Shown here: positions 1-28,819 of the stretch, one piece after another
Layout: every line of letters begins with the position of its first letter
Position numbering within the stretch: the stretch's first letter is position 1
NCBI RefSeq assembly: GCF_964194025.1
Contig: NC_134477.1
Coordinates: 22,816,001 to 22,880,000, forward strand
Direction: 5' to 3'
DNA length: 64,000 nt
DNA from: Convolutriloba macropyga
Taxonomy: Eukaryota
Notes under the pieces: generated by a model
What the model was told of the DNA's origin: nothing
Seen by the model: the letters and a program-made list of their open reading frames with translations, nothing else
The model's database searches: none
Program-made: the position numbers and the translations under genes

Positions 1-1076
1 AGACTTGATTTAACAAATATACCAACTTCAACAGAAATTGATGATAACCCCGGAAACGAAAATCCATATACCGTACGGCGAGAGCGCCCGGAAAGACGAG
101 AACTCTTAAGAGCACGACGTCGATCCTCGCTATCATTCCAAACACAAGATTCAACACTCGTTTCATATGGTTCAACAGATATAGAATCTAACATAATCAG
201 ACCTATAGAAGTAGGAAACTCAGAACCACCAAGTAGAACAGGAACACCCACGTTACACAACTTTAGTTTAAGTTCACCAAGTGATCACTCAGGTAATAGT
301 ACAATCCCAACAACCAAACCATCTGAGATGAGAGCAAACCCCTTCCTACCGCCTACATTCTAACAAAGACAAGATTTCAACTTTGTTCAAGAACATTTTC
401 GAGCACAGCCATTACACTCACCCAATAGTTCTCTTTGGTCAGCAACATCACCACAACCTGCAAGTAGTAATAAAACACCACCAATATCAAACCAAACATC
501 ATCATCGAATACGCCGTTAAGCGTACCACAAGTTGAACCCAAAAACTCCTTACAACCACCAAGAAACACAGCTTTATCCCCATCATCCTTTATACCAGAA
601 ATAAGATTACCATCCAGCCATCCCGGTAGAACAAGATCAACACCAATACTTAACCCAAATCCACCTACTAAAAAGGACTAATGAACATACATATCTTTTC
701 CCACTAGATCATAAAACTTGTAACCCACCTCCACCATTATACGGAACCACTAATCTTGGTGATACACTTACTAATTGGTCACGGAGTAGACTAATAAACA
801 CATTAAATCTTACGCACCGACAACGTAACGCAGCACTTAACGTTTTATTAACACCATCTCTCGAACATAAATTTAACACAACAATTAAATACGATAAATG
901 TCTTTAATCATCCGTTCCACGCAACTACACCATCAATAGTAACAACCACACTTCCAGCACCGTTCATCTGCATTGACTTTATATACAAGTTTGACAGATA
1001 TACAAAACAAACATTAGGATTTGCAACATTCTACGATCCACACACTGTTCTGTCATACACATGTCGATTCAACTAA
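1..1076 (+). pseudogene. ORF4 C-terminal part in copy A
   Basis: Homologous to 17301-18380; same peptides (NPYTVRR, MRANPFLPP, FATFYDPHTVLSYTCRFN*) with stops and frameshifts. Confidence 0.55.
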
Positions 1077-4000
1077 AAGCTATTAATTTCATTTTATTAT
1101 TAATAATAATATACATAAATATGAAAGTAGAAACAAAAATACAATTAGAACAAAGACTAAAAACTGATGCTAGACAACGCATTAAAGACCGTATAAATGA
1201 AAGAATTGAAATAAAAACCAAACATTTCCAAAATAAAAACAAAACAAGAAATGAAATAGGTATCAGTAATTTACACACAACTAATCAACAAAAATACAAT
1301 AACCTTCAACACCATGTATTTAATAATAATAATAAAATAGAAGAACTCGACGACTTTAAAAACAGTTCAGACTACGAAGCCATGTGGGAAAAAGCCATAG
1401 ATAAATGGACACGAAATTGGAACTTCTACAGAGAACGATTGACCGATATTATATTAGAGAAATTTGGCATGGACAATAAAAGAAAAAAAACATAACCGAC
1501 TAACGTCGGGCGGATTGCTCTCAAACGACCGGCGAGCGGTTGGCTTGGTCAGTAGCTAGCCACGGGGGGGTGCACCGGAGGCTGATGGGGGCAGCACTGG
1601 GTGGGGGGGGGCAAAAGCGCGGTGGGGGGGGTGGTGGAGCCAATAGTGGGGGTGGGGGGTCAACAAAGGGGGGGGTGTCAACCTCTAAGAACCGCCCCTC
1701 ACACCATAAGTATAAGTATAAGTCTCCAAGACAGTTTGAGCTGAAACAGACCTGAAAGGCTCTAAGAGCACATAATGCCCGCTGGGCGCTACCTGTTTAT
1801 CCCGTTTTTGAGGACGAAAAGTCAAAAGCGTCAGACGAAAAATTGGTTAAGCGAAAAATCGCATAAAAAAAGACCGACAGGACTTTGTAGAACTAAAAAG
1901 CCAGAATGTTAATGGCTCTGCAACAGGACCACAAGAAATCTTCAATGAACACTACGATTGTGATGCAGAAGAATTTTTTAATGTTAAGTATTACGAATTA
2001 AACAAAATCAGCGCATGCAAATTCAAACCACTAGACTTAGGTTTGACAAAGACTGAAGTACAACTATTATCGAAAGCACAAGCAGTAGAAATAAAAACTT
2101 ACGCTGTGGCAGGAACAATTAAAGAACGCGTAGAATGGTGCTCACAACACACCGACTACATCCGAGCTAACAGACCAAGTTACTATGTCTCAGATGCACA
2201 AAGAACTAAAATAATAGATGCAGATGAAGTTCGTAACGAACTCGCTAGAATTAACCTCCTCAAAAACACAAGATACAAACCAACACGATATAACATTTCA
2301 TTCAATTACATAGCTAACCCATCACTTCAGAAACAGATCGAAGAAAAGCAAGGTAGAATACAATTTGACCTTGATACTCCTATGGTACCACCATACGGAC
2401 GAATAGTTTATGACTATACAAACCTAATGTGGATACCAAACGCAATTAAGAATGCACAATCAAACTGCATGAAAGGACCAAGAAAACAAAACAGAATAGA
2501 CATACTAGACTGGACATTAGAAATACGAGAAGTATCATTAATACTAAACTTAGACAACGAAGAAATGTCATATATGGGAACAAAATTACCGTGCGACCTC
2601 CGAAAAAGAGAATGTTTACCGACACCTTTCACAAAAGCAACAATAGTTTGGGAACCACAAACACATTGTCAATTATTTGAACTCATTAGATTTGATGCAT
2701 TTATGATAAAATACCAGGAGAGATATTGGATAGAAACAAATGCCGAATGGACAACAGTTCAAAAACTTGATAAAACACAGAAAATAGAAAAGAACAAAGC
2801 AGACACTATTGCCACCAGATTTGAAATCTACTCATTAGTAGAACGCGAATGCGGTTCGCTTCAACCAATACACAAAACAGAAAACGACGACATTTACATA
2901 ATCTACCAATACGGATTCGATATGCATACAGGACAAAAAGTAACAAGGAAAAAAGACAAATTTGAAAGAGAAAAATTTATACGGATTAACTCAAAACAAA
3001 TAACATCACAAACCACACGATTTGAAGACGAGGAAAACAAACAATACTAATATGGTTTTGTAAACCAAAACTCACACATGAACATAAAAATGGACCTTTA
3101 CATGAGTAACATATACTCGAGAATAAGTCTACAAGCAATGAAATTTTATTCGAAAATTTGTGATTAAACTAGAAACATTCGACAATAAACACTGACACAA
3201 GTACAAAAGAGCACACCACTCTTAGGATACATCCTAACTGGAGATAGATCAATCTTTGTTAATCAAGAAGGAGTAAATGTAATGAAAATGTACAAACGCG
3301 CGAAAAAATCATCACCCTTATATGTATCACAAACCCGCGAATGTTATGATAAAATGTCAATACTGTATAATAACAGAGTACAATATGTACATCAGCTAAC
3401 AAGACAAACATACTTATGGGCAAAGAAAGTCCAATGTTCACACAGCAACTTCGACCAACTGATCTCAATAGACACTGAAGGAACAGCAAGATATAGAGTA
3501 ACACCATATCCTGTAAAAGTAGAGACAGTATTGAACACTATATCACCAGAAGAAATAGTACTTGATAACATGTTCAGTAAATCAAGTTTAATAGAGAGTG
3601 GTATATACAGTGAAGAACAAATAATTCAAGAACGAAAACGAGATCTATTACACGAATACATGTGAGATCGCGAAAAACCATTACAAGAAGCAACCTCAGC
3701 AAACGCACAAAAATTGCTTGAACTTGAATAATTAGGACTATTACAAACTTACAAAAACTACGAACAATCACTAAAATGGTTAAGAGACCTGAACATAAAT
3801 GGATATAACTTCCAAATCAACCAAACCATTATTGACTGGAACAAAATCTTTTACGGAGCATGGCTTAAATAACAAATATTAACAATCTTTGGTTGGCCAC
3901 GGTACGTCTTAGAAAAAAAGGCAATAATCTACGCAATGATAAGCATGATACTATTTATCACAAATTTAATTATAAAATTCTACAACGCTTTTGCAATACA

Positions 4001-4847
4001 TAACGCAATTGGCAAACAAGCCAGTATAACAAAAATACTTCTTACAGGAAAATTCGGAATCTTTTCTCAAACATTAACACAACTAGTAGCTCAAATACAA
4101 GAAAAAGAAGAAAATAGCCACGACAGCGATGAAAACTATACACATTACGGAAATCAACCCAGAAAGAAGCATTCGTTTCGAAGACATTCCACAGACATAA
4201 CACATACAACAGATTATGCTGATAATGATAAACCTGAAGAAGTTTATGTGGATACAAACTACAAACATTATAACACAACAATTCGTAGAACAAAAAACGG
4301 ACTACAGTTAAGAACAACAAACTCATCTTCAAAGAAACAAAAACCACCATTACCAGAACGAAAATATAAACAAGAACCATTAAGAGTAGAACCACTGAAA
4401 ACAATATCAGAAAACAAACTACAAACACTGCCACCACAACTCATTACTCCACCTCCTGCATATCAATGCTCGGGAAATAATATATCATTCCCAACTACGC
4501 CTCTCAGTCAAAATACACCCCTTCCTAGTGCGCCTAACATACAACAACAACAAACTACATAATTTCAGAGACATCCATATGAACAACCACACAATATGAA
4601 CCAGTCAATATCGTATGAAATACCACAAACATCAAATGAATCTACAAATAAACAACATCTGACACCAACAGTAAAACTAATGGATATACAAAATCCACCT
4701 CCAATAGACTTTGACCAATTAAAAATAACGGCTAACAAAATGCATAACCGCAGCCATAGTTTAGACATATTAAAAAATGACGACAAACAACATACGAATG
4801 AAGTAACACATTTTAAAAACCATTCGACGGATACATACGAGGTTTAA
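1061..4847 (+). pseudogene. env: env-like class III (chuvirus/gB-like) fusion glycoprotein, copy A (premature stops, SINE-like insertion)
   Basis: N-terminal hydrophobic segment. Motifs YDC-x20-C, VQLL, WCSQH, LPCDLRKREC..TIVWEPQTHC, ECG..HKTE..IYI, CYDKMxILYNN..TR..KVQC and SGIYSEE. TM segment AIIYAMISMILFITNLII at about 3920-3975, then a long tail. Confidence 0.78.
1501..1872 (+). mobile_element. G-rich short interspersed repeat (SINE-like) inserted in env of copy A
   Basis: Absent from copy B. Homologous to 41302-41500 and about 40570-41066. A-rich 3' end; possible ACCGAC direct repeats at 1495-1500 and 1873-1878. Confidence 0.7.
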
Positions 4848-5334
4848 CAACAACCCCGTAGTACAAGAACAAATAACATTGTTCCATTTACTATGTAATA
4901 CACCTTTTTTCGATATTATAATGAATTTTTCCTACCCCTCCCTTTATAACTCCTCCTTTCACTTTATAATTTCAGTTTCATACCTACCAACCTATTTCAT
5001 CGATTTCTTTTTTTCATTTTCTTCATTCTTCACCTTCATACTTCACTAATACATGTAGATTTCACATAACTCTTATAACAATAACATATACATGTATGCT
5101 TAGTAATAATATGTAAAAACACACTAACCGTTGAATAACGTTCAATCGACATCCATTCATACTGATATAACAATACTTTCTTGGTAATAATAGTAACTGG
5201 GAATTCTGATGGGAAATAGTCATAACGACATCACATAACAATAACATAACATATAACAACCATAAAAACAAATGTAAGAATAATAACATAGGTAATGATC
5301 AAGAATATGTACTCAACAGTTACAATTTCAGCAA

Positions 5335-6756
5335 ATGGCTTCCAGAATGGACTACGAAATCGAATCACCTTACAAGACAGACTCTCCACTAAGCTCTGAT
5401 GTGGAAGAATGAGAGCTCAGCCCTGGTTCTGGACGATCAAGCCCAGGGACAATACGTAACAACGCATCCGACTGCAGTACACAAACGGATGACCGTTTTG
5501 ATCGCCCACAGGACAAAGTAACAACCATGAGAATCGAAATGGAAAATGCAACATTGGAACAAGAGACACAGACAAACCAACGTACACCACAAGAGATAGC
5601 AAACCTCATATCGGAAAAACTTCATAAAGCCCGACAGTCGGATACCCGATGAAATCTAGATTCTTTTCGTAACAAAACAAATGAACAAGCTACAAGCACT
5701 AATACACATAGCTACTAGAACAATAGGCCGAATAACAAAACTCAGATTGAAACATGTGTATCTCCACCCTTACCAAACTATCCACCACCAGTACGACCAC
5801 CCCCACCTGATGATTACACAACAGAAAACAATAGTATACAAAACAGTGTTCAACAACGCTGGATTGTAAGTAATCCGCATCACATTAGACCGAACAACCT
5901 CCGGTTTCCTTACGCAGTTACACCGAGAAGTAACAATAGGAAATCTTTTTTCCACCATTCTACAAATGACCAACCCCACAACAACTGTTATGGAAACAAT
6001 TTGGTTTCAAGAAAAAGACCCAAGAACCCTCAGCAATCCACACAGTAGTAATTATAATACTTTATTATCTTACCGTAACTGGTCTGAAATGCCGTTCGAT
6101 TCTCGAGATTATAACTTTGTTAAAACACCACAGCATAATTTAAAAGATCGCGTCTCGGAGTACTTCCCGCCTCTACCATCCGAGAATAATAACACTGTAA
6201 AACGTAGCACTAAGAATATGGGGAGAGATAAACTCCATCAGACAACATACCCCATCTTAAAACAATTCTATAGTCTAACAGAACGCTTTATGTATGATTA
6301 GGACTACGAGTTTAAGGTACCAGTAATTTGTACATTTGACTACCTTGTCGCAAAGGCATCCCAAGACCTTTCGGCTTACAGCGTGTTCGAACATCAAATT
6401 TTTCAATTAAGCGTCAACTTCCTACATCCAACACCGAAGGATGTTCAAAACAACAATTATCGGTTACACGAAACAAAGTTGATTCATAACTTGATATATT
6501 ATACGTTCCCACGAGATAAAAAGATTAACACTACTAAGAGTTAAATTCTTATTAACGACCAATTAACATCACCGTATTCCTTAAACTACGGATATAAACT
6601 AAAATGGGACTATACTATCGGGACTTTACGTAATTTTGACCCTATTAAAAATTATTACATTTTTCAACCCAAGGAAGCACCGGAACGACCACTAATTGTA
6701 CCAATCGAAGCGCTTGAACCGTGTGAAGAATATCACACTTACCACTTAGAAGGCAG
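5335..6756 (+). pseudogene. ORF6 of copy A, 5' part (first duplicate)
   Basis: MASRMDYEIESP start at 5335; truncated by B's LTR at 6757. Confidence 0.7.
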
Positions 6757-7154
6757 TAAGACGTGTTCTGAGCTTACCTTCTTATAGGCTACTTCTGGAA
6801 CTGTCTTATGGTTGTCTCAAGAATATAGGATACTCTTAAGGCTTACCTGACTAACTAAAGTTCAAGATCGCTAGTCTGTTACTCTTTTATCTGAGCTTCA
6901 GTAGACAGTGCACGGGCCCCAATGCTAAAGTCTAACGTATATCTCATAACTAAACAAGAGCGGAGTAGAGAGAAAGAAATATACTTTATTATTATATCAG
7001 GTCTGTGACTAGTACCGACTAACGGGATAAGTGAAAAAGGGGTAAAGGGAAAACATTCAAGGAAAAGTATTTTCCCTTTTTCAACCAATCAGGGTTGAGT
7101 ATTTCAGTCTTTATTTTATTTAAATAAATAAAGTCCTCAAGTCTTTTGTTGGAA
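6757..7154 (-). repeat. Duplicated copy of B's 3' LTR (part of the 3.76-kb tandem duplication)
   Basis: Same sequence and same GCAG junction as 10521-10918, offset 3764 bp. Confidence 0.9.
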
Positions 7155-9098
7155 AGGTTCGCCTGATATTTCTTAAAGGTTCGCCTGATACGACACATTG
7201 ATATTCAACCTTCCAAATAATTCCTTTGGTAATTATAATTCCTTTGGTAATTATAACTCCTTTGGGAATTATATCATATTAGTTGTTAATAGATGTACTG
7301 TTGTTAGTTGTTACTATAGAAGGATGCATGTTTATACATGCGATAGTTTCTTGTTTTTATTTACATGTTTAAGAATGATGTTATAATTGTGATTGTTATG
7401 TTTTACGATACATGAGAGATCGCGAAAAACCATTACAAGAAGCAACATCAGCAAACGCACAAAAATTGCTAGAACTTGAACAACTAGGACTACTACAAAC
7501 TTACAAAAACTACGAACAATCACTCAAATGGTTAAAAGACCTGAACATAAAGGGATATAACTTCCAAATCAACCAAACCATTATTGACTGGAACAAAATC
7601 TTTTACGGAGCATGGCTTAAATAACAAATATTAACAATCTTTGGTTGGCCACGGTACGTCTTAGAAAAAAAGGCAAAAAGGCAATAATCTACGCAATGAT
7701 AAGCATGATACTATTTATCACAAATTTAATTATAAAATTCTACAACGCTTTTGCAATACATAACGCAATTGGCAAACAAGCCAGTATAACAAAAAATACT
7801 TCTTACAGGAAAATTCGGAATCTTTTCTCAAACATTAACACAACTAGTAGCTCAAATACAAGAAAAAGAAGAAAATAGCCACGACAGCGATGAAAATTAT
7901 ACACATTACGGAAATCAACCCAGAAAGAAGCATTCGTTTCGAAGACATTCCACAGACATAACACATACAACAGATTATGCTGATAATGATAAACCTGAAG
8001 AAGTTTATGTGGATAGAAACTACAAACATTATAACACAACAATTCGTAGAACAAAAAACGGACTACAGTTAAGAACAACAAACTCATCTTCAAAGAAACA
8101 AAAACCACCATTACCAGAACGAAAATATAAACAAGAACCATTAAGAGTAGAACCACTGAAAACAATATCAGAAAACAAACTACAAACACTGCCACCACAA
8201 CTCATTACTCCACCTGCTGCATATCAATGCTCGGGAAATAATATATCATTCCCAACTACGCCTCTCAGTCACAATACACCCCTTCCTAGTGCGCCTAACA
8301 TACAACAACAACAACAAACTACATAATTTCAGTGACATCCATATGAACAACCACACAATATGAACCAGTCAATATCGTATGAAATACCACAAACATCAAA
8401 TGAATCTACAAATAAACAACATCTGACACCAACAGTAAAACTAATGGATATACAAAATCCACCTCCAATAGATTTTGACCAATTAAAAATAACGGCTAAC
8501 AAAATGCATAACCGCAGCCATAGTTTAGACATATTAAAAAACGACGACAAACAACATACGAATGAAGTAACACATTTTAAAAACCATTCGACGGATACTT
8601 ACGAGGTTTAACAACAACCCCGTAGTACAAGAACAAATAACATTGTTCAATTTACTATGTAATACACCTTTTTTCGATATTATAATGAATTTTTCCTACC
8701 CCTCCCTTTATAACTCCTCCTTTCACTTTATAATTTCAGTTTCATACCTACCAACCTATTTCATCGATTTCTTTTTTTCATTTTCTTCATTCTTCACCTT
8801 CATACTTCACTAATACATGTAGATTTCACATAACTCTTATAACAATAACATATACATGTATGCTTAGTAATAATATGTAAAAACACACTAACCGTTGAAT
8901 AACGTTCAATCGACATCCATTCATACTGATATAACAATACTTTCTTGGTAATAATAGTAACTGGGAATTCTGATGGGAAATAGTCATAACGACATCACAT
9001 AACAATAACATAACATATAACAACCATAAAAACAAATGTAAGAATAATAACATAGGTAATAATCAAGAATATGTACTCAACAGTTACAATTTTAGCAA

Positions 9099-10520
9099 AT
9101 GGCTTCCAGAATGGACTACGAAATCGAATCACCTTACAAGACAGACTCTCCACTAAGCTCTGATGTGGAAGAAGGAGAGCTCAGCCCTGGTTCTGGACGA
9201 TCAAGCCCAGGGACAATACGTGACAACGCATCCGACTGCAGTACACAAACGGATGACCGTTTTGATCGCCCACAGGACAGAGTAACAACCATGAGAATCG
9301 AAATGGAAAATGCAACATTGGAACAAGAGACACAGACAAACCAACGTACACCACAAGAGATAGCAAACCTCATATCGGAAAAACTTCATAAAGCCCGACA
9401 GTCGGATACCCGATGAAATCTAGATTCTTTTCGTAACAAAACAATTGAACAAGCTACAAGCACTAATACACATAGCTACTAGAACAATAGGCCGAATAAC
9501 AAAACTCAGAATGAAACATGTGTATCTCCACCCTTACCAAACTATCCACCACCAGTACGACCACCCCCACCTGATGATTACACAACAGAAAACAATAGTA
9601 TACAAAACAGTGTTCAACAACGCTGGATTGTAAGTAATCCACATCACATTAGACCGAACAACCTCCGGTTTCCTTACGCAGTTACACCGAGAAGTAACAA
9701 TAGGAAATCTTTTTTCCACCATTCTACAAATGACCAACCCCACAACAACTGTTATGGAAACAATTTGGTTTCAAGAAAAAGACCCAAGTACCCTCAGCAA
9801 TACACACAGTAGTAATTATAATACTTTATTATCTTACCGTAACTGGTCTGAAATGCCGTTCGATTCTCGAGATTATAACTTTGTTAAAACACCACTGCAT
9901 AATTTAAAAGATCGCGTCTCGGAGTACTTCCCGCCTCTACCATCCGAGAATAATAACACTGTAAAACGTAGCAGTAAGAATATGGGGAGAGATAAACTCC
10001 ATCAGACAACATACCCCATCTTAAAACAATTCTATAGTCTAACAGAACGCTTTATGTATGATTAGGACTACGAGTTTAAGGTACCAGTAATTTGTACATT
10101 TGACTACCTTGTCGCAAAGGCATCCCAAGACCTTTCGGCTTACAGCGTGTTCGAACATCAAATTTTTCAATTAAGCGTCAACTTCCTACATCCAACACCG
10201 AAGGATGTTCAAAACAACAATTATCGGTTACACGAAACAAAGTTGATTCATAACTTGATATATTATACGTTCCCACGAGATAAAAAGATTAACACTACTA
10301 AGAGTTACATTCTTATTAACGACCAATTAACATCACCGTATTCCTTAAACTACGGATATAAACTAAAATGGGACTATACTATCGGGACTTTACGTAATTT
10401 TGACCCCATTAAGAATTATTACATTTTTCAACCCAAGGAAGCACCGGAACGACCACTAATAGTAGCAATCGAAGCACTTGAACCGTGTGAAGAATATCAC
10501 ACTTACCACTTAGAAGGCAG
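9099..10520 (+). pseudogene. ORF6 of copy A, 5' part (second duplicate)
   Basis: ORFs 9099-9416, 9730-10065 and 10147-10551; truncated by B's LTR at 10521. Confidence 0.7.
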
Positions 10521-10918
10521 TAAGACGTGTTCTGAGCTTACCTTCTTATAGGCTACTTCTGGAACTGTCTTATGGTTGTCTCAAGAATATAGGATACTCT
10601 TAAGGCTTACCTGACTAACTAAAGTTCTAGATCGCTAGTCTGTTACTCTTTTATCTGAGCTTCAGTAGACAGTGCACGGGCCCCAATGCTAAAGTCTAAC
10701 GTATATCTCATAACTAAACAAGAGCGGAGTAGAGAGAAAGAAATATACTTTATTATTATATCAGGTCTATGACTAGTACCGACTAACGGGATAAGTGAAA
10801 AAGGGGTAAAGGGAAGACATGCAAGGAAAAGTATTTTCCCTTTTTCAACCAATCAGGGTTGAGTATTTCAGTCTTTATTTTATTTAAATAAATAAAGTCC
10901 TCAAGTCTTTTGTTGGAA
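10521..10918 (-). repeat. 3' LTR of copy B, missing its first ~16 nt
   Basis: Matches 31369-31774, then breaks at an internal deletion junction (about 10919). Confidence 0.9.
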
Positions 10919-12024
10919 AGGTTCGCCTGATACTTCTTAAAGGTTCGCCTGATACGACACATTGATATTCAACCTTCCAAATATTTCCTTTGGTAATTAT
11001 AATTCCTTTGGTAATTATAACTCCTTTGGGAATTATATCATATTAGTTGTTAATAGATGTACTGTTGTTAGTTGTTACTATAGAAGGATGCATGTTTATA
11101 CATGCGATAGTTTCTTATTTTTATTTACATGTTTAAGAATGATGTTATAATTGTGATTGTTATGTTTTACGATAATCAGTTTATTAAGTGATAAACTGAG
11201 TTATGGATGTGTCAAAATTTTGTTATTCGAATTTTTCGAATTTGTAATATACCTATGTATCGGTTTGTTAGAAACTTACCATTTTGTGATTTAGTTTTAT
11301 CGGATTTGGTTATAAAATACACTTCATACATGTTGTTATTGTGAATACCAATCTTTGAGCTAATGTTATAGAGTAATGTTATTACTGAAAATGGTAGAAT
11401 TGTCATGTCATGACTCAATCTATTGAATAACTATGTACACGTTATGTGTTGAATTTATTGTGCATGTCTGTTACATATAACCTATAGTGTGTTATTATAC
11501 ACTGTGTTGTGCATATTACGTTTGTTACGCTTGTTTATATCTCTTCCTCTTGTTCATACTACAAAATACAAGTTATTTTTTGGTCTTTTCTTTATTTACA
11601 AAAGTGCATATATCTAACTATGGAAAATCTTTGCATATGTACATGTATAGTTCTATCAGCTAAGAATAGGGTAGATAAATACTTAGAAAAGTGAAAAATT
11701 GAGTTCTATCTAAAGTTTATTCTACATCAAGTGCTATACCAGTTGCTATATCTATCAGTAATTATAAGTGATATAAACTGGTGTACAATTGTAGAGGATG
11801 GTACAAATGTAGAGGATTGTACAAAGTTAATGGATGGTTATCTAGACAAATAGATTAGAACTATACCAAATAGTTTGTTCAAACAGTTGGAGTATAATTT
11901 GGTACTGCAATAAGGGTAAAACACATGTGCAGAGAGGCATTCATAGTGGGATACTAATTGTTCAAATTTATTCAATCTACAGTGTTTGGATTTCGACATT
12001 GTTACTTGTTCTCAGTTTGTGTCG

Positions 12025-13676
12025 TTAAAATTTGTCCGTTTGTTTGGGATGATTTGTTCTGCCCCTATAATGCTTGTATTCCTTGAGAAATCGGTCATCT
12101 TTTGACAGAAAATGTGCGAGGAGATTAGTTATTTCGTCAATTGGTACGTCAGTTATCGACGCTTTAACTGTATTCCTTATCTCTTTTTCAATTTCCGTTA
12201 CTTCTCGTTCGTTATTGAATTGTACTCTATTACTAAAGGCTCTATTCGTTACGCTGCCTTCTAAGTGGTAAGTTTGATATTCTTCACACGGTTCAAGCGC
12301 TTCGATTGGTACAATTAGTGGTCGTTCCGGTGCTTCCTTGGGTTGAAAAATGTAATAATTTTTAATAGGGTCAAAATTACGTAAAGTCCCGATAGTATAG
12401 TCCCATTTTAGCTTATATCCGTAGTTTAAGAAATACGGTGAGGTTAATTGATCGTTAATATGTATGTAACTCTTAGTAGTGTTAATGTTCTTATCGCGTA
12501 GGAACGTATAGTATATCAAGTTGTGTATCAACTTTGTTTCGTGTACCCAGTAATTGTTGTTTTGTACATCCTTCGGTGTTGGATGTAAGAAGTTAAAGCT
12601 TAGTTGGAAAATTTGATGTTCGAACAAACTGTAAGCCGAAAGGTCTTGGGATGCCTTGGCGACAAGATAGTCAAAGGTACAGATTACTGGTACCTTGAAC
12701 TCGTAGTCATAATCATACATGAAACGTTCTGTTAGGCTATAGAATTGTTTTAAGATGGGGTATGTTGACTGATGTAGTTTATCTTTCCCCATATTCTTAG
12801 TACTACGTTTTACAGTGTTAGCATTCTCTGATGGTAGAGGCGGGAAGTATTCCGAGACGCGTTCTTTTAAGTTATGTAACGGTGTTATAACAAAGTTATA
12901 GTCTCGTGGATCAAACGGCATTTCGGACCAGTTGCGTTACGATAATAATGGATTATAATTACTGTTGTGTGGATTATTAAGAGTTCTCGGGTCCTTTTCT
13001 TGGAACCAGATTGTTTCCATAACAGTTGTTGTGGGGTTTGATCATTGGTAGACTGGTGGAAAAACGATTTCCTATTGTTACTTCTAGGTGTAACTGCGTA
13101 AGGAAACCGGAGGTTGTTCGGTCTAATGTGATGTGGATTACTAGCAATCCAACTTTGTTGAACACTGTTCTGTAGTCTGTTAGTTGCGGTTGTGTAATCA
13201 TCAGGTGGGGGTGGTCGTACTGGTGGTGGATATTTTGGTAAGGGAGGAGAGACATATGTTTCATCCGGAGTTTTGTTACTCGGCCTACTGTTCTCGTAAC
13301 TATGTGTATTAGTGCTTGTACCTTGTTCATTTGTTCTGTTACAAAACGAATCTAGATTTCGTCGGGTATCCGACTGTCGCTTCTTAGCAATGTGTTCTGA
13401 TATGTGGTTCGCTATCTCTTGTGGTGTACGCTGGTTAGTCTGTGTCTGTTGTTCAGATGTCGCGTTTTCCACTTCTATTCTCATGGTTGTTACTCGATCC
13501 TGTGGGTGATCAAAATTGTCATTCGTTTGTGTACTACAATCGGATGCGTTGTCGCGGATTGTCCCTAGGCTTGATCGTCTAGAGCCAGGGCTGAGCTCGC
13601 CTTCTTCCACATCATAGCTCAGTGGAGAGTCTGTTTTGTAGGGGGATTCAATTTCGTAATCCATTCTGGAAGCCAT
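12025..13676 (-). pseudogene. Accessory ORF6 downstream of env (about 550 aa, one frameshift), unknown function
   Basis: ORFs 12885-13676 and 12025-12921 join through a frameshift near 12990-13010. Disordered, Pro-rich N-terminal half and globular C-terminal half. Conserved with copy A. Confidence 0.72.
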
Positions 13677-14148
13677 TTGCTAAAATTGTTACTGTGTTTA
13701 GTACATATTCTCTATTATTACATATGTTACGATTATTATTTTTTAAATTATTTTTGTCATTAGTTGATTGTTATTTGGTGTTGTTATGACTATTTTCCAT
13801 CAGAATTTTCTTGTTACTATCATTACCAAAAAAGTATTGTTATATTAGTATGAATGGATATCGACGGAACAATACTGAACGGTTAGTGTGTTGTGACATA
13901 TCGTTACGAAACATGTATTTATATTGTTTTTGCTATATGAACTATGTGAAAACTACATGTAATTGTGAAATATGAAAATGAAGTATAAAGACGGTGAGAT
14001 AAATATGGTTAAAAGGATTTATAAACTGAAGAGAAGTGTTAGAAAAAGAGGGGTAGGGAAAATTTATCGGGAAAATTTATGAACATCTAAGGAATGTGTT
14101 GTACATTAATTGTATAATTTTAGTTGTTCGTGCACTACGTGGTTGTTG

Positions 14149-17100
14149 TTAATCCTCGTATGTATCCGCCGAATGATTTTCAAAATATGTTACTTCATTC
14201 GTATGTGGTTTGTCGTCGTTTTTTAATATGTCTAAACTATGGCTGCGGTTATGCATTTTGTTAGCCATTATTTTTAATTGGTCAAAATCTATTGGTGGTG
14301 AATTTTGTATAACCATTAGTTTTACTGTTGGTATCAGAAGTTGTTTATTTGTAGATTTATTTGACGTTTGTGGTATTTCATACGATATTGACTGGTTCAT
14401 ATTGTGTGGTTGTTCATATGGATGTCTCTGAAATGATGTAGTTTGTTGTTGTTGTTGTATGTTAGGCGCACTAGGAAGGGGTGTATTGTGATTGATAGGC
14501 GTAGTTGGGAATGATATATTATTTCCCAAGCATTGATATGCAGGAGGTGGAGTAATGAGTTGTGGTGGCAGTGTTTGTAGTTTGTTTTCTGATATTGTTT
14601 TCAGTGGTTCTACTCTTAATGGTTCTTGTTTATATTTTCGTTCTGGTAATGGCGGTTTTTGTTTCTTTGAAGATGAGTTTGTTGTTCTTATCTGTAGTCC
14701 GTTTTTTTTCTACGAATTGTTGTGTTATAATGTTTGTAATTTGTATCCACATAAATTTCTGCAGGTTTATCATTATCAGCATAATCTGTTGTATGTGTTA
14801 TGTCTGTGGAATGCTTCTTTCTGGGTTGATTTCCGTATTGTGTATAATTTTCATCGCTGTTTTTTCCTAAAGATTTCTTTCCAGTTAACACTGGGTTGGT
14901 CGATTTGGAAGTTATATCCATTTATGTACAGGTCTCTTAACCATTTGAGTGATTGTTCGTAGTTTTTGTAAGTTTGTAGTAGTCCTAGTTGTTCAAGTTC
15001 TAGCAATTTTTGTGCGTTTGCTGATGTTGCTTCTTGTAATGGTTTTTCGCGATCTCTCATGTATTCGTGTAATAAATCACGTTTTCGTTCTTGGATTAGT
15101 TGTTCTTTACTGTATATACCTTTTTCTATTAAACTTGATTTACTGAACATGTTATCAAGTACTATTTTTTCTGGTGATACAAAGTTCAATACTGTCTCTA
15201 CTTTTACAGGATATGGTGTTACTCTATATCTTGCTGTTCCTTCAGTGTCTATTGAGATCAGTTGGTCGAAGTTGCTGTGTGAACATTGGACTTTCTTTGC
15301 CCATAAGTATGTTTGTCTTGTTAGCTGATGTACATATTGTACTCTATTATTATACAGTATTGGCATTTTATCGTAACATTCGCGAGTTTGTGATACATAT
15401 AAGGGTGATGATTTTTTTTGCGCGTTTGTACATTTTCATTACCTTTACTCCTTCTTGTTTAACAAAGATTGATCTATCCCCAGTGAGGATGTATCCTAAG
15501 AGTGATGTGTTCTTTTGTACTTGTGTCAGTGTTAATTGTCAAATGTTTCTAGTTTGTTCACAAATTTTCGAGTAAAATTCTATTGCGTGTAGACTTATTC
15601 TCGAGTATATGTTAGTCATGTAAATGTCCATTTTCATGTTCATGTGTGTGTTTCGGTTTACAAAACCTTAGCAGTATTCTTTGTTTTCCTCGTTTTCTTA
15701 TCGTGTTTTTTGTGATGTTATTTGTTTTGGTTTAATCCGTATAAACTTTTCTTCTTCAAATTTTTCTTTTCTCCTCGTTACTTTTTGTCCTGTATGTATA
15801 TCGAATCCGTATTTGTATATTAAGTAAATGTCGTCGTATTCTGTTTTGTGTATTGGTTGAAGCGAACAGCATTCGCCTTCGACTAATGGGTAGATTTCAA
15901 ATCTGGTGGCAATAGTGTCTGTTTTGTTCATTTTTATTTTCTGTGTTCTATCATGTTGTTAAACTGTTGTCCGTTCGGCATTTGTTTCTATCTAATATCT
16001 GTCTTGGTATTTTACCATAAATGCATCAAGTCTAATAAGTTCAAACAATTGACAATGTGTTTGGGGTTCCCAAACTATTGTTGCTTTTGTGAAAGTTGAC
16101 GGTAGACATTCTCCTTTGCGGAGATCGCATGGTTATTTTGTTTCCATATACGATATTTCTTCAGTGTCTAAGTTTAATATGATTGATATTTCTCGTATTT
16201 CTATTGTCCAGCCTAGTATGTCTATTCTGTTTTATTTTCTTGGTTCTTTCATGCAATTTGATTGTGCATTCTTAATTGCGTTTGGTATCCACATTGGGTT
16301 TGTATAATCATAAACTATTCGTCCGTATGGTGGTACCATAGGAGTATCAAGGTCGAATTGTATTCTGCCTTGCATATATTCGATATGTTTCTGAAGTGGT
16401 GGGTTAGCTATGTAGTTAAATGAAATGTTATATCGTGTTGGTTTGTATCTTGTGTTTTTGAGGAGGTTGATTTTAGCGACTTCGTTACGAACTTCATCTG
16501 CATCTAGTATTTTTTTTCTATGTGCATCTGAGACATAGTAACTTGGTCTGTTAGCTCGGATATAATCGGTGTGTTTTGAACACCATTCTACGCGTTATTC
16601 AATTGTTCCTGCAACTGCGTATGCTTTTATTTCTACCGCTTGTGCTTTCGATAATAGCTGTACTTCAGTCTTTGTCATATCTAAATCTAGGGGTTTGAAC
16701 TTACATGTGCTTATTTTGTTTAATTCGTAAAATTTAACATTAGTTATCTCTTCTGCGTCAAAATCGTACTGTTAAATGAAAATGTCCTGTGGTCCTGTTG
16801 CGGAGCCGTTAATATTCTGTCCCGTTAGTTCTACAAAGTCTGTTTTTGTTTGTCGCTTTTGTCTTATATTGTTCATGCCAAATTTCTCTAATATACTATC
16901 TGTTAATCGTTCTCTGTAAAAATTCCAATTTCGTGTCCATTTATCGATGGCTATTTCCCACATCGCTTCGTAGTCTGAACTGTTTTTAAAGTTATCGAGT
17001 TTTTCGATTTTGCTGTTATTGAAAAGTTGTGGATTAGTGTTGATAGAATTATTATTGATTACATGGTGTTGTAGGTTATTATATTTTTGTTGATGAGTTG

Positions 17101-17316: not shown

Positions 17317-19100
17317 GTGTATGACAGAACAGTGTGTGGATTGTAGATTGTTGCAAATCCTAATGTTTGTTTTGAATATCTGTCAAACTTGTATATAAAG
17401 TCAATGCAGATGAACGGTGCTGGAAGTGTGGTTGTTACTATTGATGGTGTAGTTGCGTCGAACGGGTGATTAAAGACATTTGTCGTATTTAATTGTTGTG
17501 TTAAACTTAAATTCGAGAGCTGGTGTTGCTAAAACGTTAAGTGCTGCGTTACGTTGTCGATGTGTAAGATTTAAAGTGTTTGTTAGTCTACTTCTTGACC
17601 GATTATAAAGTGTATCACCAAGATTAGTGGGACCGATAACGGTGGAGGTGGATTCCAAGTTTTATGATCTAGTGCGAATAGATATGTATGTTCATTAGTC
17701 CTACTTTTAGTAGGTGGATTTGGGTTAAGTATTGGTGTTGATCTTGTTCTACCAGGATGGCTTGATGGTAATCTTATTTCTGGTATAAAGGATGATGGGG
17801 ATAAAGCTGTATTTCTTGGTGGCTGTAGGGAGTTTGTTAGTTCAACCTGTGGTACGCTTAGAGAGGTATTCGATGATGATGTTTGATTTGATCTTTGTGG
17901 TGTTGTGTTACTACTTGCGGATTGTGGTGATGTTGCTGACAATAGGGAACTATTAGGTGAGTGTAATCGCTGTGCTCGAAAATGTTCTTGAACAAAGTTG
18001 AAATCTTGTCTTTGTTGGAATATAGGTGGTAGAAATGGGTTTGCTCTCAATTCATATTGTGTGGTTATTTGGATTGTACTATTACCAGAATGATCGCTTG
18101 GAGAACATAAACTAAAATTATGTAATGTTGATGTTCCTGTTCTACTTGGTGGTGCTAAGTTTCCTACTTCTATAGGTCTTATTATGTAAGATTCTATATA
18201 TGTTGAACCATATGAAACGATCGTTGAATCTTGTGTTGGGACTGATAGCGAAGATCGACCTCGTGCTCTTAAGAGTTCTCTTCTTTCCAGGCGGTCTCGC
18301 CGTACGGTATATGGATTTTCGTTTCCGGGATTATCATCAATTTCTGGTGAAGTTGGTATATTTGTTAAATCTGTAACTTCGTTATGATGTGGTCTTTCTT
18401 GATGATTATTGTTACTTTGATTTTTATTAGACGACGCAATTTTTGCAGGTTAAACTTTAAGCTCCTGAGCCAGGTCCGTGTGGTGGAACTTGGATGAATG
18501 GTGGTGAGAGTATTATTAGTGGTGTTAAATCTTGTTCTGGTTGTTGTGTTTGTGCTCCTAGATTTGATATCCAAATTTCGTTATTGTCAAGTCTGAGATG
18601 TAGTTGATAAATTATAATGTTACCGTTTAATAGAGAAATTTCAGGAAATCCTATTTGAAAATAAAACTTTTGGGAATGTAGTGTGTACTATATTGATTCT
18701 TCTATATCTGGTATCTGGTATAGGATCAATTTTTATGGTTTTACAAAATATTCTATTAACATTAAACACATGCGTAAGAAGAAATAAATTATTAGTGCAA
18801 TTTTAATAAATTTAAAAATTTCCAGTTCTATTATATCAATAGTGGATTTGCATATATGAAATATATCGGAATGTACTCAATGCATTGGTTTTATTATTGT
18901 ACTGGTGGACTAGCGTAGATGACTCTACGGTTTGAAATAACTTCGTATATTGTTACTGTAGCTAGATATGTCGAAATAACTACAATACACGGTAAAAGAA
19001 AGATAGTTAAGAAAAATATTATTTTAGACAATATTAAATACGTTGCTATTAGTGCGTTAGGAAAATCGATTGTTGAAACTGTTTTTGTTGTTTTCTATAT
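17301..19100 (-). pseudogene. Accessory ORF4: hydrophobic N-terminal segments followed by an S/T/P-rich region (frameshifted)
   Basis: Manual translation gives ALIATYLILSKIIFFLTIFLLPCIVVISTYLATVTI near 18930-19055. ORF fragments 17583-18050 and 17470-17658. Homologous frame in copy A at 1-1076. Start is uncertain. Confidence 0.5.
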
Positions 19101-19314
19101 GTTTTGTTTATTTTATTATTTGTTTGTATATGAATGTTAGATATTATGGTTTTAAACTTTATCCGGTGGAAATGAGATAAAATGCTTCACTGAAGAGTGA
19201 CAGTTATTTACTAGTGTAACTGACACTTGATGGTGCCGCACTATGAAAGTACTGTAGTTCCAAAAGTGTTTATTTTATGTTATTGATATGCAACGATAAC
19301 GATGATAGGTATCA

Positions 19315-19734
19315 TTACTTATTTAATTTTTCAATTTTGTCGTCTGACAATGTTACAGCGTCTTTTTTGCAAACTATTAGAGAAACTGTGTGTAATTTGT
19401 TTATATTGACACACTTGTCTGTGTGAATTTGTTGTTTTAGTTTTTCGAATTCTGTAATTGTTTCAGTAAACGGTGCCGTGTTCTTTAGTAGTTCAAAATG
19501 TTTTTCTCCCCAAAACAGTTTTACTTCTTGTCCAGTTTCTGTTCTTCCTTCTATTAGAAGAAGACAGTTTTTAGGTGAGATTCTACAGTTTGTTAGTTTA
19601 ATACTGTCGTTGTCGAAATGTATATGACAATCTGGTGGATATTCAAGTTCAATATATTCGTCTATTTGAACAAATATTTTTATGCAAAGTTGATTTCTAT
19701 TCAATGATTTCATAAACTCTGACACCGATAGCAT
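19315..19734 (-). CDS. Accessory ORF3 of the element, 139 aa, unknown function
   Basis: Uninterrupted ORF on the element's sense strand with globular-like composition. Preceded by an acceptor-like TTCATTTCTGACAG at about 19777-19790. Confidence 0.5.
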   Translation of the reverse strand: MLSVSEFMKSLNRNQLCIKIFVQIDEYIELEYPPDCHIHFDNDSIKLTNCRISPKNCLLLIEGRTETGQEVKLFWGEKHFELLKNTAPFTETITEFEKLKQQIHTDKCVNINKLHTVSLIVCKKDAVTLSDDKIEKLNK

Positions 19735-22700
19735 AGGTGGTTGTTCATTACAATGTTTACTATAATGATGAATTAGTCTGTCAGAAATGAAATTAAAATA
19801 ATTCAGATTACCTGGTACTGTTGAATCGTTTTTGGCTGAATTTTTGTTGATAAAACAGTTGATTGAAGAAGAGATATTCTGTTAGTTTTAATTTCTCAAT
19901 GAATATTTCGAGGTTTCTCAAATTGGTTTGTCTAGATCGAGAGAGTATGAAATTTGAGAATTTCAGGATTATTTTTTGGCCGTAGAGATGAAATGAGATT
20001 ATGATTTTAGAAATGAAATGAAATGAGGTTATGTTTGTATTTGAGACTATAAATTCAGAAATAGAATGAAGTTTTGAGTAGAAGTTGGAAATTTTTTCTC
20101 ACTGAATATTTGAATTTATGTTTTTGTGTATCAGTTTAGCTGAAATTTCAGATTTTTCAAATGTAGCTGAGGTTGTGACTTGTACGACTTGTGATTTTTC
20201 ACTCAACTGTTTGTTGCCTCTATAATATTGTTGGCATTTGCATACCTTCCGTTTTCTTTTCTTGGTTCTTGAAGTTGCCAATTTTACTAATTTACTGGGT
20301 CTAATTAAACTTTTGGATTCTGAGTTTTCGAATTATAAGGATCTTTCTGAAGTCTCTTCAGTTTTGTTGTTATGATTGTTTTTCCTTTGTAATTGGTATG
20401 TTTGATGGCAGTGTAACGTACTTTTGTCATGGTATGTTAGAGATATTAATTAGTTACTTGATGGTGTTTATTGTCACTTGATAAAATTTAGCTCCAAGTA
20501 GGTTTTTGATCAATGGTATAATTGATGAAGATGGTTGAAGTGGATGGTGACGCCTTTGGTGTATGTCGTTAATGAGTTACCAAGTTGGTGTTTGGTGCAA
20601 ATGGTGCAAATGTCAAGTAGATGGTTGGTTTGCAAACTGTAACTGTTAATTAGTTGTTTGGTATCGAAGTCATGTCGAACGTGTTTGTGTGTATGATTGG
20701 AGTTGTGTTTAGATGAAGTGTTTACTTCAACTGCAAAATGATCTTTGTAGATCTATCATGATAATCACCATTTCGTTCATGGCGTTGAATATGTTAATTG
20801 GTTTGGCATTTTCTGTTTGTTGCTAATTGCGTCTTTAAGGGAACGGTAAGTCCCTGTAATTTGTATGTAAACTCTTTTTATCTGCAAATGAAAGTAGTAA
20901 TTTGTTCCTTTCTTTCCTTGTTCTGTGTTAATGAGGCCCTTGTTACCTTTTGTAATCCTTATATTTTTTCTAATGAGGATACTAATGAGGTCTTTTCCTG
21001 CTAATGATAGCGTGTTGTAAACGTCCGTTTCCTTCGTATGACGTAGGTGGATGGTGGCGTATTATTCAGGTAAAATGTCACTATGGGATTTCCATTTAGC
21101 CTAAATGTCTAATAAGCAGAAATGTCTATTTAGTTGGAATGTGTATTTAGCCGAAGGGCGTTTTACTGATGTTACGCGTTAGAGGTTGTTTGGTTAGTGT
21201 TATGAGCCAGAGGTCGTATGACCGATGAGTAATCAATGTGAACTATATGTCATGTATTTAGGTATTGAGCCGTTTAATTGCCGTTGCTCACTTGTTAGAA
21301 ATACCCTGGTTAGAGTACGCTAGATGTTACTGGATTGTAACACATTACTGGATTGTAACACGTATTGGAGTGTTACGCGTATTTGATTTTTACGCTTAAT
21401 GGATCTTTATACGTCGTTATACGTCTTTTACTCGTTCTGTTTAAATTATCTGTTCGGGAAATAGGAAGTTACTTAAATTGAGGAAGCTATTGAAAAAAGG
21501 AAGTTACTATATTTGTAACCGTTTATATTTATATGTATGTTGTTATTTCTAGCTTCCGCATTGTTACTATTGTGTGTGTCCCGTATTAATTTTTGTCCTT
21601 ATTATTTTTTATCTGTTTGTTAATTTTTACGTTGTTATTACTTGTCTTTTTAATACTTGTGGTTTTTCCTGTTGTTATTACTTGTTGCTATTACTTATCC
21701 TTTTGATTTTGATATTATAAATGTTTATGTATTATAAATGTTTTATATTAATTTCATTTTTCATGTTCCATAGTATTAGCAACTACAAAATGTCTATTCC
21801 ATTCTGCGAGTCCTCTATCGTGTTATTGCGGACATTGTTATTTGATTCTATTTGTGATTTGATTATTTTGTTATTTGATTGATTTGTTTATTGTTTAATC
21901 GTCAGCAAACTCGAAACGTCTATTCCAGTTCCAAGCCTGTGAACATCAAAAATAAAAACAGTTTGTGTTTTATTTTTATTTTTGTTTGTATTATTTGTTA
22001 GTAAAAACTATTTGTATTAGTATATCCTGTTTGGATTTTTTACTTGTTATTTTGATTGTTTGTTTGTTGTTTTATTTGTTTTATTTAACTGATGACGGTG
22101 GATTGGATGGGGATGGTTGTATTGAGAAGGTGGTTGCGGTGGTTGCGGTGACTGATGGTTAGTGATGAGAATCAGTTGTGAGATTGCCAAAGAAGAGGAG
22201 GTTTGATGATGGAAATAATGTTGAAAAAAAGAAGGTGATGGTGGAATGAGAAGAAGACGGGTAATACATTTTTGTTTTATGTTTCATTTTTTAGTTGTTT
22301 ATTTAAATGTCTCATGTGTTCATTTTGTTTCAATAGAAGGTGTTAATTTTTAGGTAAGGTAAACTGCAGTTAAATTCTATAGTATCACTGATTTAGTTCA
22401 TACACTAAATGTTGGTTGGAACAATTGTTAGTAAATACGGATTATATGGTTATGGTTTATAGAGGTTAGTGGTTAGGTGTTGGTTATTAACACTTTTTAG
22501 TTTCAATGTGTTATTATTTTCATTTGTATTTTAATATTGGTGTTTTCATTTGTTAAAATAAATATGCCTTTTTATTCTACGTTTTTACTGAAAAGTGTTC
22601 TGGTGGTATGCACACAAGGTTCGGGTTAGGAGGGTGTGCTAATTCTTTGTAGTAGGGATACTGAACATGTTTTCAAAGTAGTGAAAATACTGAATATGCC

Positions 22701-22982
22701 GAGAGTAGTAGAAACACTGACTGTGAATTGCAAAATCGTAGGATATGTAATAGATACGTAATAAAATAGAGGATACTTATGATATATTATAATAATAAAT
22801 AGAGTTCATTAGTGTAGTACGTAATAGTACAGTATATGTAATATGTGATAGAGTTCAACACTTGTAATGTGTAACCGTAATCTCGTTTGAGATTTCTAGA
22901 TCATAGGAGTGAATTGTCGTATTTGTGTTTAAGATGTAGCAATAAAGTGTATAATCGAATACTGTTAACATACATGGATTAG

Positions 22983-23208
22983 NNNNNNNNNNNNNNNNNN
23001 NNNNNNNNNNNNNNNNNNNNNNNNNNNNNNNNNNNNNNNNNNNNNNNNNNNNNNNNNNNNNNNNNNNNNNNNNNNNNNNNNNNNNNNNNNNNNNNNNNNN
23101 NNNNNNNNNNNNNNNNNNNNNNNNNNNNNNNNNNNNNNNNNNNNNNNNNNNNNNNNNNNNNNNNNNNNNNNNNNNNNNNNNNNNNNNNNNNNNNNNNNNN
23201 NNNNNNNN
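22983..23208. other. Assembly gap
   Basis: Run of N. Confidence 1.
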
Positions 23209-23281
23209 TTTATTATTATTTTAAGAGTGTTATCTTCCTCTTGCGAAGATTGTATTGATGTGTATGTTCTTTATCTGATTG

Positions 23282-24778
23282 TTATAGGCTTGGTTTAGTT
23301 GCAGTTGCTACATTGGGTTGTTTTAATGTTGGAATCTCATTTGTGAGCAAGTAGTTTTGTAATTCTATTTTGATATGTTTTTCTTTTGGATAATATGGTA
23401 CAATGTGATTTCTGTGGATTGTAATCTGTTCTTTATTGTTATCCTTTAATATGTATCTTGTTCTTCTAGGTTTATCTATGATTAGATATGGTCCTGTTTT
23501 CAGTGGTAACAGTTTTTTGGATACTCCGTCAACTTGTTGTTGAATTGTTACTAATACAAAAGTATTCTTTTCAGGTGGTTTTGCTGATCTGAAGCTGAGA
23601 TCCATTTCATCTGTTAATTTTTTCTGCTCTGTAGGATTTTTGTTATAGATTGATATGTGCCGTTCTAATGTCTTTCTTTATCAAGGAACCATTTGGCAAA
23701 TGTTCCTTTTTGTAATTTTGCAATTTTTGGATGATTAAATTTTTTTTCCAGATGAGTGTGTGCTGGCTGTGTGTTACATGCACTTTTCTCTGTTGGATTA
23801 CAATTTCTCATTTCATCTGTAGAGTTGATCCGAGTTTTTTTATTTCGTTGGTTTTCTCGGTTTTTGGTTGAAAACGACTTCATATGGGGACATGCCTAGT
23901 CGTGCATGGTATTGTGTATTGTATGCGTATGGAAAGAATTTTGCTTTCCGTGACCAATTATGATACTTTTTGTCTAGTAGTGTTCTAATGAACTGTCCAA
24001 TTATTCTGTTTGTTCCTTCTACTAGAACGTTCGTCCAGGGTGCATATGTTGAACTTGGTTTAAATTTGATTTCAAAGTAGTTACATAAATGTGTTAACTC
24101 AGTGTTAATGTGTTCCGATCCGTTATCTGATCTAATTTCTTCGGGTAGTCCGAAATTAATGAACCAATGTTCGAATAGTGCTGTAAATGCATAATGTCCA
24201 TTATTTTTTGGTGCACAAATTATCGTTACGTAGTGTGAAAATGCGTCCACTATGACAAAGATGTAGTTGTTTCCTTCAGATGTTGGGTGAATAGGTCCTT
24301 TTGTGTCAATCATTGTCATTTCATAGAAATATGTTTTTGTTGGTGCAAGCTGTTCTTGCTTACTTTTTGTTTTTGTATTAGCTAATACTTTGTTGGTTTG
24401 GCATTGTATGCAATCTGCTATCAGTATTTTTATCCAAACTGTAAGATTTGGGAAATAGTATTTATCCATTATATTTCTTTTGGTTTTTTCAAGGCCTGTG
24501 TAACCTACTAGGTCGATGCAATGGTTATTATAAAAGAAGCATAGTAAAAGTGTTAATGGTAGACAGATTCTTTGCATTGATTTTTTGTGAATGTTGATTA
24601 CAATTTTTGTGATACCGGAGTTTTCATCAATTATAATGGATTTGAATTTGCAAAAATATGCAAAAAATCCTTTGTTTCCACGTATTTCCATTGTTACTGA
24701 ATGTGGTTTATTGTTATGTTTCTTCCCCATTTTCACTTTGTGAAGTACAGGATCTAAGATTTGGGTTTCTTTGATCAA
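23282..24778 (-). pseudogene. pol: Integrase with GPY/F module (disrupted)
   Basis: Degenerate HHCC (NHCIDLVGYTGLEKT..CIQC), IDTKGP, IVDAFSHY, IRSDNGSE, VEGTNRII. KLLPLKTGPYLII in 23282-23605. Confidence 0.93.
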
Positions 24779-26600: not shown

Positions 26601-26807
26601 CTACTTGTTCAACTGTTTCGTTGTCTTGTATACTTAATATTTCGTTAATGTCATTTTCATTTTAATATGTTAGATGATATAATGCTGAAAATAAGTCTAT
26701 CGAATTTGTTTGGTACATTTCTTCTTTATGTTGTTTGAATGTAATGTTTTGATACACTGAACCAATTAGACCTACATTAATTGTCACTTTATGTTGGTTT
26801 TTATTTA

Positions 26808-28808: not shown

Positions 28809-28819
28809 ATGACTATAAA

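Follow-up and report, generated by a model that had tools for sequence, protein, structure and literature searches.

Conserved PPAY and PSAP motifs in the predicted cytosolic Env tail of a large Ty3/gypsy element and their possible role in particle release

General features of the element and its copies

The window (the whole stretch of 64 kb that was analysed) holds several copies of one element, which by its coding content is a large Ty3/gypsy LTR element with a predicted class III (gB-type) Env. Copy B, a 21.3-kb element on the minus strand (10521–31790), is arranged as LTR, gag-PR-RT-RH-IN, a spacer of about 6 kb, env, two further ORFs and LTR. Its LTRs are direct repeats of about 420 bp that are 92% identical and end in TG...TA, not TG...CA, with a site starting with TGG after the 5′ LTR and a 4-bp target-site duplication of GCAG. 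The gag region (27759–31295, minus) is frameshifted and contains an N gap, and the pol region (23240–27758, minus), which encodes protease, RT, RNase H and integrase, is also frameshifted. The Pfam domains along copy B and on the relative P0473 follow the protease-RT-RNase H-integrase order of Ty3/gypsy. The affinity of Pol to Ty3 was judged by the best solved-structure match, and for an uninterrupted relative Pol this match was Ty3 Gag-Pol (9e-46), with foamy virus Pol at 1e-22. An identity as a foamy virus (Spumaretrovirus) or as a member of the Retroviridae was considered and rejected, as Pol is closer to Ty3 and Env is not of the retroviral type.

Copy B lies within the last ORF of copy A (within 5950–6756 / 31791–32000, plus), inserted in the reverse orientation, and the 3′ LTR of copy A lies at 35952–36376 (plus), with 91–93% identity to the LTRs of copy B. 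A third copy, A′ (7408–11174, plus), is a tandem duplicate of 3656–7410 which is 98.5% identical to copy A and includes the 3′ part of env. Since this 3.75-kb duplication takes in the 3′ LTR of copy B, it is either later than the nesting or an artefact of assembly. Every copy of env in the window is broken and unable to encode a complete Env, and these copies are dead relics. The family itself is numerous, with clusters of 382 and 531 members. Judging by the type of element, the host is presumably an invertebrate animal.

The spacer of about 6 kb that separates pol from env in copy B (17330–23240, minus) contains a Ser/Pro-rich ORF with a hydrophobic C-terminal end (17583–18449) and a second ORF of 188 codons (19315–19881), neither of which gave a significant Pfam match. 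A Pro-rich ORF without a Pfam match is located after env (12885–13679, minus; copies at about 5350–6050 and about 9100–9800, plus). It carries SPPLP[KN]YPPPVRPPPPDDY, which provides an LPxY and possible SH3/WW ligands, each of the three window copies reading LPNY or LPKY. The final ORF has 303 codons (12025–12936, minus) and gave neither a Pfam match nor a usable feature-search match; it could encode a matrix-like or accessory protein. Among the repeats of the window, a 351-bp unit is present 6.9 times at 97% identity at 32174–34606, within the 3′ UTR of copy A, and is single in copy B. There is also a 213-bp two-copy repeat at 37572–37998 and a 32-bp satellite of about 26 copies at the window end (63174–64000).

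The Env protein of copy A

The broken env gene of copy A (1061–4847, plus) encodes a likely signal peptide starting at 1061, a class III ectodomain, a TM helix and a tail. Seven in-frame stops occur between 1881 and 4844, with one of them (4560–4562) placed eight codons after the PSAP motif discussed below and six further stops upstream. The 5′ part of the gene also contains a GC-rich insertion with runs of G at about 1489–1880, which is probably a small mobile element; positions 1644–1846 within it match 41299–41495 at 85%. The same kind of hydrophobic leader as in the Env of copy A was called in the relative P0050, and 18 of 19 full-length relatives have a furin-type site ahead of the ectodomain.

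Env matches PF24664 of Pfam, and a feature search gave a score of 0.90 to PF24664 clusters, with low recognition. The Env model, which is of low confidence (mean pLDDT 53.5), matched HSV gB of the PDB in Foldseek at 1e-9. The best viral-model matches of the ectodomain (ranks 1–9) were chu-, xinmo- and qin-like glycoproteins, with E values of 7e-23 to 1e-18 at 12–13% identity. As in the errantiviruses with an HSV/gB-type env, the third ORF of this element encodes a predicted gB-like fold of class III together with a signal peptide and a TM segment.

The predicted TM helix, H1 (3921–3974, plus; Kyte-Doolittle about 2.1–2.4), corresponds to a helix at residues 666–709 of the model. After it come a stretch that is basic and amphipathic and then a second helix, H2 (4026–4103, plus; residues 716–741 of the model), which is marginally hydrophobic with hydropathy values of 0.7–1.9. 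The soluble tail (4095–4844, plus) comprises 250 residues and is predicted to be disordered, pLDDT falling below 50 from residue 732 on. A preliminary description of this DNA had counted about 290 amino acids after the TM helix; about 290 codons do extend to 4847, but the stop at 4560–4562 interrupts them.

Several islands of the tail are conserved in relatives, namely RRHS (4179–4190), YVDTNYKHYNTTIRRT (4245–4292), PPLPERK (4344–4364) and YEIP (4614–4625), all on the plus strand, together with PIDF, HTNE and a terminal TYEV. The islands at 4176–4364, 4614–4625 and 4830–4844 (FRRHS, YVDTNYKHYNTTIRRT, KPPLPERK, YEIP and terminal DTYE[VI]) are as conserved as the two late motifs described below. 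The YVDTNYKHYNTTIRRT island is a predicted hairpin. RRHS presumably resembles a basophilic kinase site and PPLPERK an SH3 ligand, and we take YEIP and the terminal TYEV/I to be tyrosine-type islands resembling sorting or docking motifs. These islands are candidates for the binding of Gag or of adaptors.

Topology of the tail

H2 was found in every relative long enough, and its position is also conserved in distant Envs, with hydropathy up to 1.9. This helix matters for topology, as two membrane crossings would leave the tail outside. A rough estimate of insertion energy had a median of +3.1 for H2 and was positive in 31/31 sequences; for H1 the median was +0.6 and the value was negative in just 8/31, which marks the estimate as crude. 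H2 probably lies along the membrane instead of crossing it, and in some relatives it might span it. The tail is nearly free of Cys (0.2 vs 1.8 per 100 residues), has about 15 lysines and contains N-x-S/T sequons at the level expected by chance (4.3 vs 3.9 per tail), and its conserved islands resemble motifs of cytosolic proteins. A cytosolic tail is, with these features, likely. The original suggestion of a cytoplasmic tail is favoured by its disorder, its low Cys content and its chance level of sequons, although the second, marginal helix H2 complicates it.

The motif pair in the window copies

Codon reading bore out the placing of PPAY at 4452–4463 and PSAP at 4524–4535 in the env frame of copy A (both plus strand), as given in the preliminary description. 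PPAY is a PPxY motif of the WW-domain/NEDD4 type and lies within the conserved island LITPPPAYQ (4440–4466). PSAP is a motif of the TSG101-UEV type, and its island is exactly four residues wide. P[ST]AP has three matches in the six frames of the 64 kb, each one in a copy of the env tail. Among the differences between 4130–4559 and contigs aligned to it, none of the 40 listed (of 79) hit the motif codons.

In the env tail of copy B (14152–14709, minus), PPAY is found at 14547–14536 and PSAP at 14475–14464. Copy A′ reads PAAY at 8213–8224 and PSAP at 8285–8296, such that PSAP is present in three of three window copies and PPxY in two of three. The window copies are 87–98% identical in DNA, and their agreement on the motifs is therefore weak evidence of selection. 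Furthermore, the segment with the TM helix and H2 is deleted upstream of the tail in copy B (the stretch matching 3852–4122 of copy A, which holds the TM helix, is gone), so that the motifs of copy B stand outside any membrane-anchored tail. The earlier observation that both motifs are retained in copy B was correct as such, but it was made on a copy deprived of its TM helix, and the third copy reads PAAY. Retention in copy B was rejected as evidence for the motifs, the copy being too close in DNA and its TM segment lost; the support for the motifs is to be sought in relatives, not in the window copies.

It had been cautioned that such short motifs may arise by chance. This applies to PPxY alone, which occurred in 9.6% of shuffles of the 250-residue soluble tail, but hardly to the pair, with both motifs occurring in 65 of 100,000 shuffles (0.065%); P[ST]AP alone occurred in 0.7%.

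Conservation of the motifs in relatives

Relatives were drawn from searches that included one with the best 150 of 374 matches listed and another with the best 120 of 184. Among the matches listed there were 409 distinct proteins, of which 251 had a match to the tail, 143 spanned the motif region and 107 contained the whole tail. Both motifs were present in 107 of the 143 proteins spanning the motif region, with PSAP only in 18, PPxY only in 15 and neither in 3. Considering distinct uninterrupted full-length Envs (n = 19), PSAP was found in 19 and PPxY in 17.

The 107 whole tails fell into eight multi-member groups and two singletons, with 56–76% identity between groups, and PPAY and PSAP were each present in 91 of these tails. 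Just 25 of the 237 4-mers of the tail, PPAY and PSAP included, were kept by at least half of the members in all eight groups. In a ranking of group-weighted retention, PSAP was 9th (0.80) and PPAY 39th (0.69) of the 237, against a median of 0.15. PSAP is the only 4-mer of residues 861–911 kept in 8/8 groups, the 4-mers overlapping it being kept in 4/8 and 3/8. The spacer between PPxY and PSAP varies, measuring 9, 11, 15, 20, 22 or 25 residues by group and 13 to 33 in single cases. In P0285, which like some other relatives is a fragment and has a tail only 35% identical, PPPY and PSAP are both retained, with a spacer of three residues.

In the comparison with the flanking tail across relatives, both motifs were far better kept than their immediate surroundings. 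Conservation above the flanks within a disordered segment, as expected of late domains, was found for the pair. The motifs are two of about eight islands, with RRHS, YKHYNTTIRRT and PPLPERK kept as well as the late motifs. As judged from these alignments, the motif pair is real, selectively conserved and under constraint, though its two motifs are not the sole constrained sites. Since the other islands are equally kept, the tail may be a general docking platform.

Distant Env proteins

A set of 17 distant Envs, hand-picked as long and of low identity among the matches listed, was aligned, one of them without a tail. In the other 16 Env-like proteins the median pairwise identity of the ectodomain is 31%, and the tails measure 26–350 residues. 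A strict P[ST]AP, PPxY or LYPxL motif was found in 8/16 of the tails (shuffle mean 0.94, maximum 6 in 5000 shuffles). P[ST]AP, as PSAP or PTAP, was found in 5/16 of these unalignable tails and in none of their ectodomains. One of the 16 is the Env of the distant gag-pol-env element L001, the tail of which carries both LYPDL and PSAP; the Gag of L001 (424 residues) contains none of these late motifs and no LPxY.

A second distant set consisted of seven Envs selected by ectodomain patterns, two of nine metagenome loci having been dropped as duplicates. Strict motifs were found in 1/7 of these tails (shuffle mean 0.40, P 0.34), namely in that of L008, which has PPNY and then PSAP in the same order as copy A. 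Besides these tail motifs, the protein L008:210-3206 has APPY and PPPY near its N-terminus. Relaxed patterns, which do not serve as tests as they were chosen after the tails had been seen, gave [LIFV]YPx[LIV] in 9/16 and xAPP-type motifs in 9/16 of the first set, and xYP in 5/7 and SAP/TAP in 3/7 of the second set. With 8/16 in the first set and 1/7 in the second, the late-motif trait appears widespread in this Env lineage yet not universal, or else degenerate in many members. The 72 pattern matches in viral contigs included no relative, and phage records gave no match.

L001 and L007 are distant pol-env elements which have extra ORFs after env, as does the element in the window. L007 also has extra ORFs between pol and env. 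The extra ORFs of L001 and L007 had no Pfam match.

The Gag protein

Gag relatives with the capsid region (n = 78), a sample of mostly partial and close sequences (most about 80–95% identical to the query), were scanned for late domains. P[ST]AP and LYPxL were found in none of the 78 and PPxY in one, in agreement with the suspicion that budding signals might be carried by the glycoprotein. The lone PPxY sits before the protease, where other Gags read LPMY. The ten Gags that start at the N-terminus and extend beyond the zinc knuckle contained no P[ST]AP, PPxY or LYPxL, and neither P[ST]AP nor PPxY was present in the gag region of copy B, whichever frame was read. Late domains are usually placed on Gag or matrix proteins; here the motifs are on Env, and Gag is without the canonical form.

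LPxY is a weak variant of the PY motif that can bind WW domains weakly. LPFY was found in 52 of the 55 Gags covering that site, with one subfamily having YPDEI. Both LPxY sites of Gag lie 24–31 residues before a folded domain (capsid or protease), a spacing that would also fit processing sites. Gly2 was found in none of 28 Gag N-termini. In the Gag proteins (29700–31295, minus, and P0412–P0489), about 500 residues, with no Gly2, precede the capsid domain, and the zinc knuckle is followed by a long Arg/Ser/Asn-rich segment.

Proposed function of the tail

The conservation of the motifs in the family and their lack in Gag suggest that Env may call in the budding machinery of the cell. It is proposed, with a probability of roughly 0.45 and by analogy to known late domains, that the tail recruits NEDD4 via PPAY and TSG101/ESCRT-I via PSAP for particle release. 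In active ancestors, Env would have been a type I membrane protein with a signal peptide, a furin site, a gB-like ectodomain, one TM helix, a second helix hugging the membrane and a long, disordered cytosolic tail. PPAY would bind the WW domains of a NEDD4-family ligase, leading to ubiquitination of the lysine-rich tail or of its neighbours, and PSAP would bind the UEV domain of TSG101 (ESCRT-I). Patches of Env may then draw ESCRT to the membrane at which Gag capsids, already assembled, get wrapped, at the cell surface or into multivesicular bodies, with Env possibly contacting Gag and supplying the scission signal that Gag lacks in canonical form. A wider reading, more doubtful than this one, is that the late-domain job has moved from Gag to the tail of the fusogen, so that a single protein would serve in fusion and also organise budding; PSAP/PTAP, PPxY and LYPxL would be interchangeable across lineages, as they are among Gag and matrix proteins.

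The main alternative, somewhat less probable than a role in release, is that the motifs are NEDD4/ESCRT docking sites for the traffic of Env only (ubiquitination, endocytosis and multivesicular-body sorting), limiting fusogen at the surface or loading Env onto exosomes, while capsids are released by other signals. The resemblance of YEIP and the terminal TYEV/I to sorting or docking motifs would suit such traffic. In E-cadherin, a P(S/T)AP motif of the tail is bound by Tsg101 and directs the protein into vesicles (PMC9511404), and ubiquitination of foamy virus Env suppresses, rather than drives, the release of subviral particles (PMC3705266). This would, however, leave Gag without a canonical late motif, in L001 also, and the presence of all three classic late-motif types in these tails would stay unexplained. 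Nor does it exclude a role in release, as sorting into a budding vesicle is part of that process, and sequence alone cannot separate the two. The tail could alternatively be a scaffold for signalling or for hijacking ligases, of which the tail of EBV LMP2A is an example. PPAY would then redirect NEDD4 ligases to host proteins with no role in release, and PSAP or the PxxPxR island would bind SH3 or other adaptors. The equally conserved RRHS and PPLPERK islands agree with this, as does HSV-1 UL56, which is reported to recruit NEDD4 ligases and thereby down-regulate a host protein (PMC11998485). It is made improbable by the restriction of the PSAP island to exactly the four residues of the TSG101 ligand and by the recurrence of PSAP/PTAP in 5/16 distant tails that cannot be aligned.

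Two further explanations place the release signal elsewhere or the tail on the other side of the membrane. Release might be driven by LPxY of Gag or of an accessory ORF, with the Env motifs as redundant helpers, and what speaks for it is the prevalence of LPFY in Gag and the LPNY/LPKY of the Pro-rich ORF that follows env. The Gag sites nevertheless show the spacing of a processing-site pattern, Gag is without Gly2 and the Gag of L001 has no LPxY, and the explanation is considered very improbable. The least probable is that H2 is a second TM segment and the tail luminal or extracellular, the motifs being due to chance or conserved for another reason. H2 is indeed an uncharged stretch of about 20 residues, its position is conserved and acidic residues come after it, and two of the conserved islands contain N-x-S/T sequons. 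Set against this are the positive insertion energy of H2 in 31/31 on that crude estimate, the chance level of sequons over the tail and its scarcity of Cys, while the rarity of the pair in shuffles (0.065%) argues against chance.

Comparison with known systems

By its gene order and the modelled fold of its Env, the element fits the errantiviruses with an HSV/gB-type env (Chary and Hayashi, eLife 2026, PMC13524379), with which it shares the Ty3/gypsy pol, the gag-pol-env order, the signal peptide, the gB-like ectodomain and many similar copies per genome. It differs from them in its length of about 21 kb, its pol-env gap of about 6 kb, which is beyond the search windows of that survey, its extra ORFs and the roughly 500 extra N-terminal residues of Gag. 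The main text of that paper makes no mention of tail, cytoplasmic, late domain, ESCRT or budding, and of the five PSAP/PPAY matches listed from its supplements, four lay in ectodomain alignments. The Tor elements of Oikopleura are likewise gypsy-type and have a furin-cleaved membrane glycoprotein as Env, a likeness taken from their description, and in Tor4b pol and env are set apart by a gap as in the window element; the paper gave no match for late domain or budding (PMC4402516). The chu-, xinmo- and qin-like glycoproteins (PF24664) are the best structural matches, for the ectodomain only, and belong to free RNA viruses with proteins of 620–750 residues. Among the matches listed for open-licence literature, there was no paper on late motifs in the Env tail of a Ty3/gypsy element. 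Both the class of element and the classes of motif have been described before, and it is their combination that appears new with respect to those matches.

The proposal bears on how the capsids of env-bearing Ty3/gypsy elements, which are classically cytosolic, acquire their envelope and leave the cell. If the proposed role in release is correct, the capture of a fusogen with an ESCRT-recruiting tail would give exit and entry in one acquisition with Gag unchanged, a simple route from retrotransposon to virus. As the motifs are short and their partners well studied, the reading is open to peptide-binding and reporter assays.

Among retroviral Gag and matrix proteins, late domains belong to the same classes, P[ST]AP, PPxY and LYPxL, the latter seen here in distant relatives; there they are on the capsid or matrix protein, whereas here they are on Env and absent from Gag (PMC8402826, PMC3705266). 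Foamy viruses provide a precedent for release that depends on Env, as their Gag is without membrane targeting and Env is needed to bud (PMC3705263, PMC3705266). The likeness extends to a Gag with no membrane-targeting signal, but the PSAP of primate foamy viruses is in Gag (PMC3705263, PMC3705266). Their Env is unrelated, and their Pol is farther from that of the element than is the Pol of Ty3. The arrangement proposed here is approached by bluetongue virus NS3, a viral membrane protein in which PPRY and PSAP of a cytosolic segment bind NEDD4 and TSG101, leading to capsid release (PMC6949946). NS3 differs in being a non-structural protein with two TM segments and N-terminal motifs, from a dsRNA virus, while here the motifs are in the C-terminal tail of a fusogen. 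By analogy of function, bluetongue virus NS3 is regarded as a working analogue of this Env tail and not as its kin.
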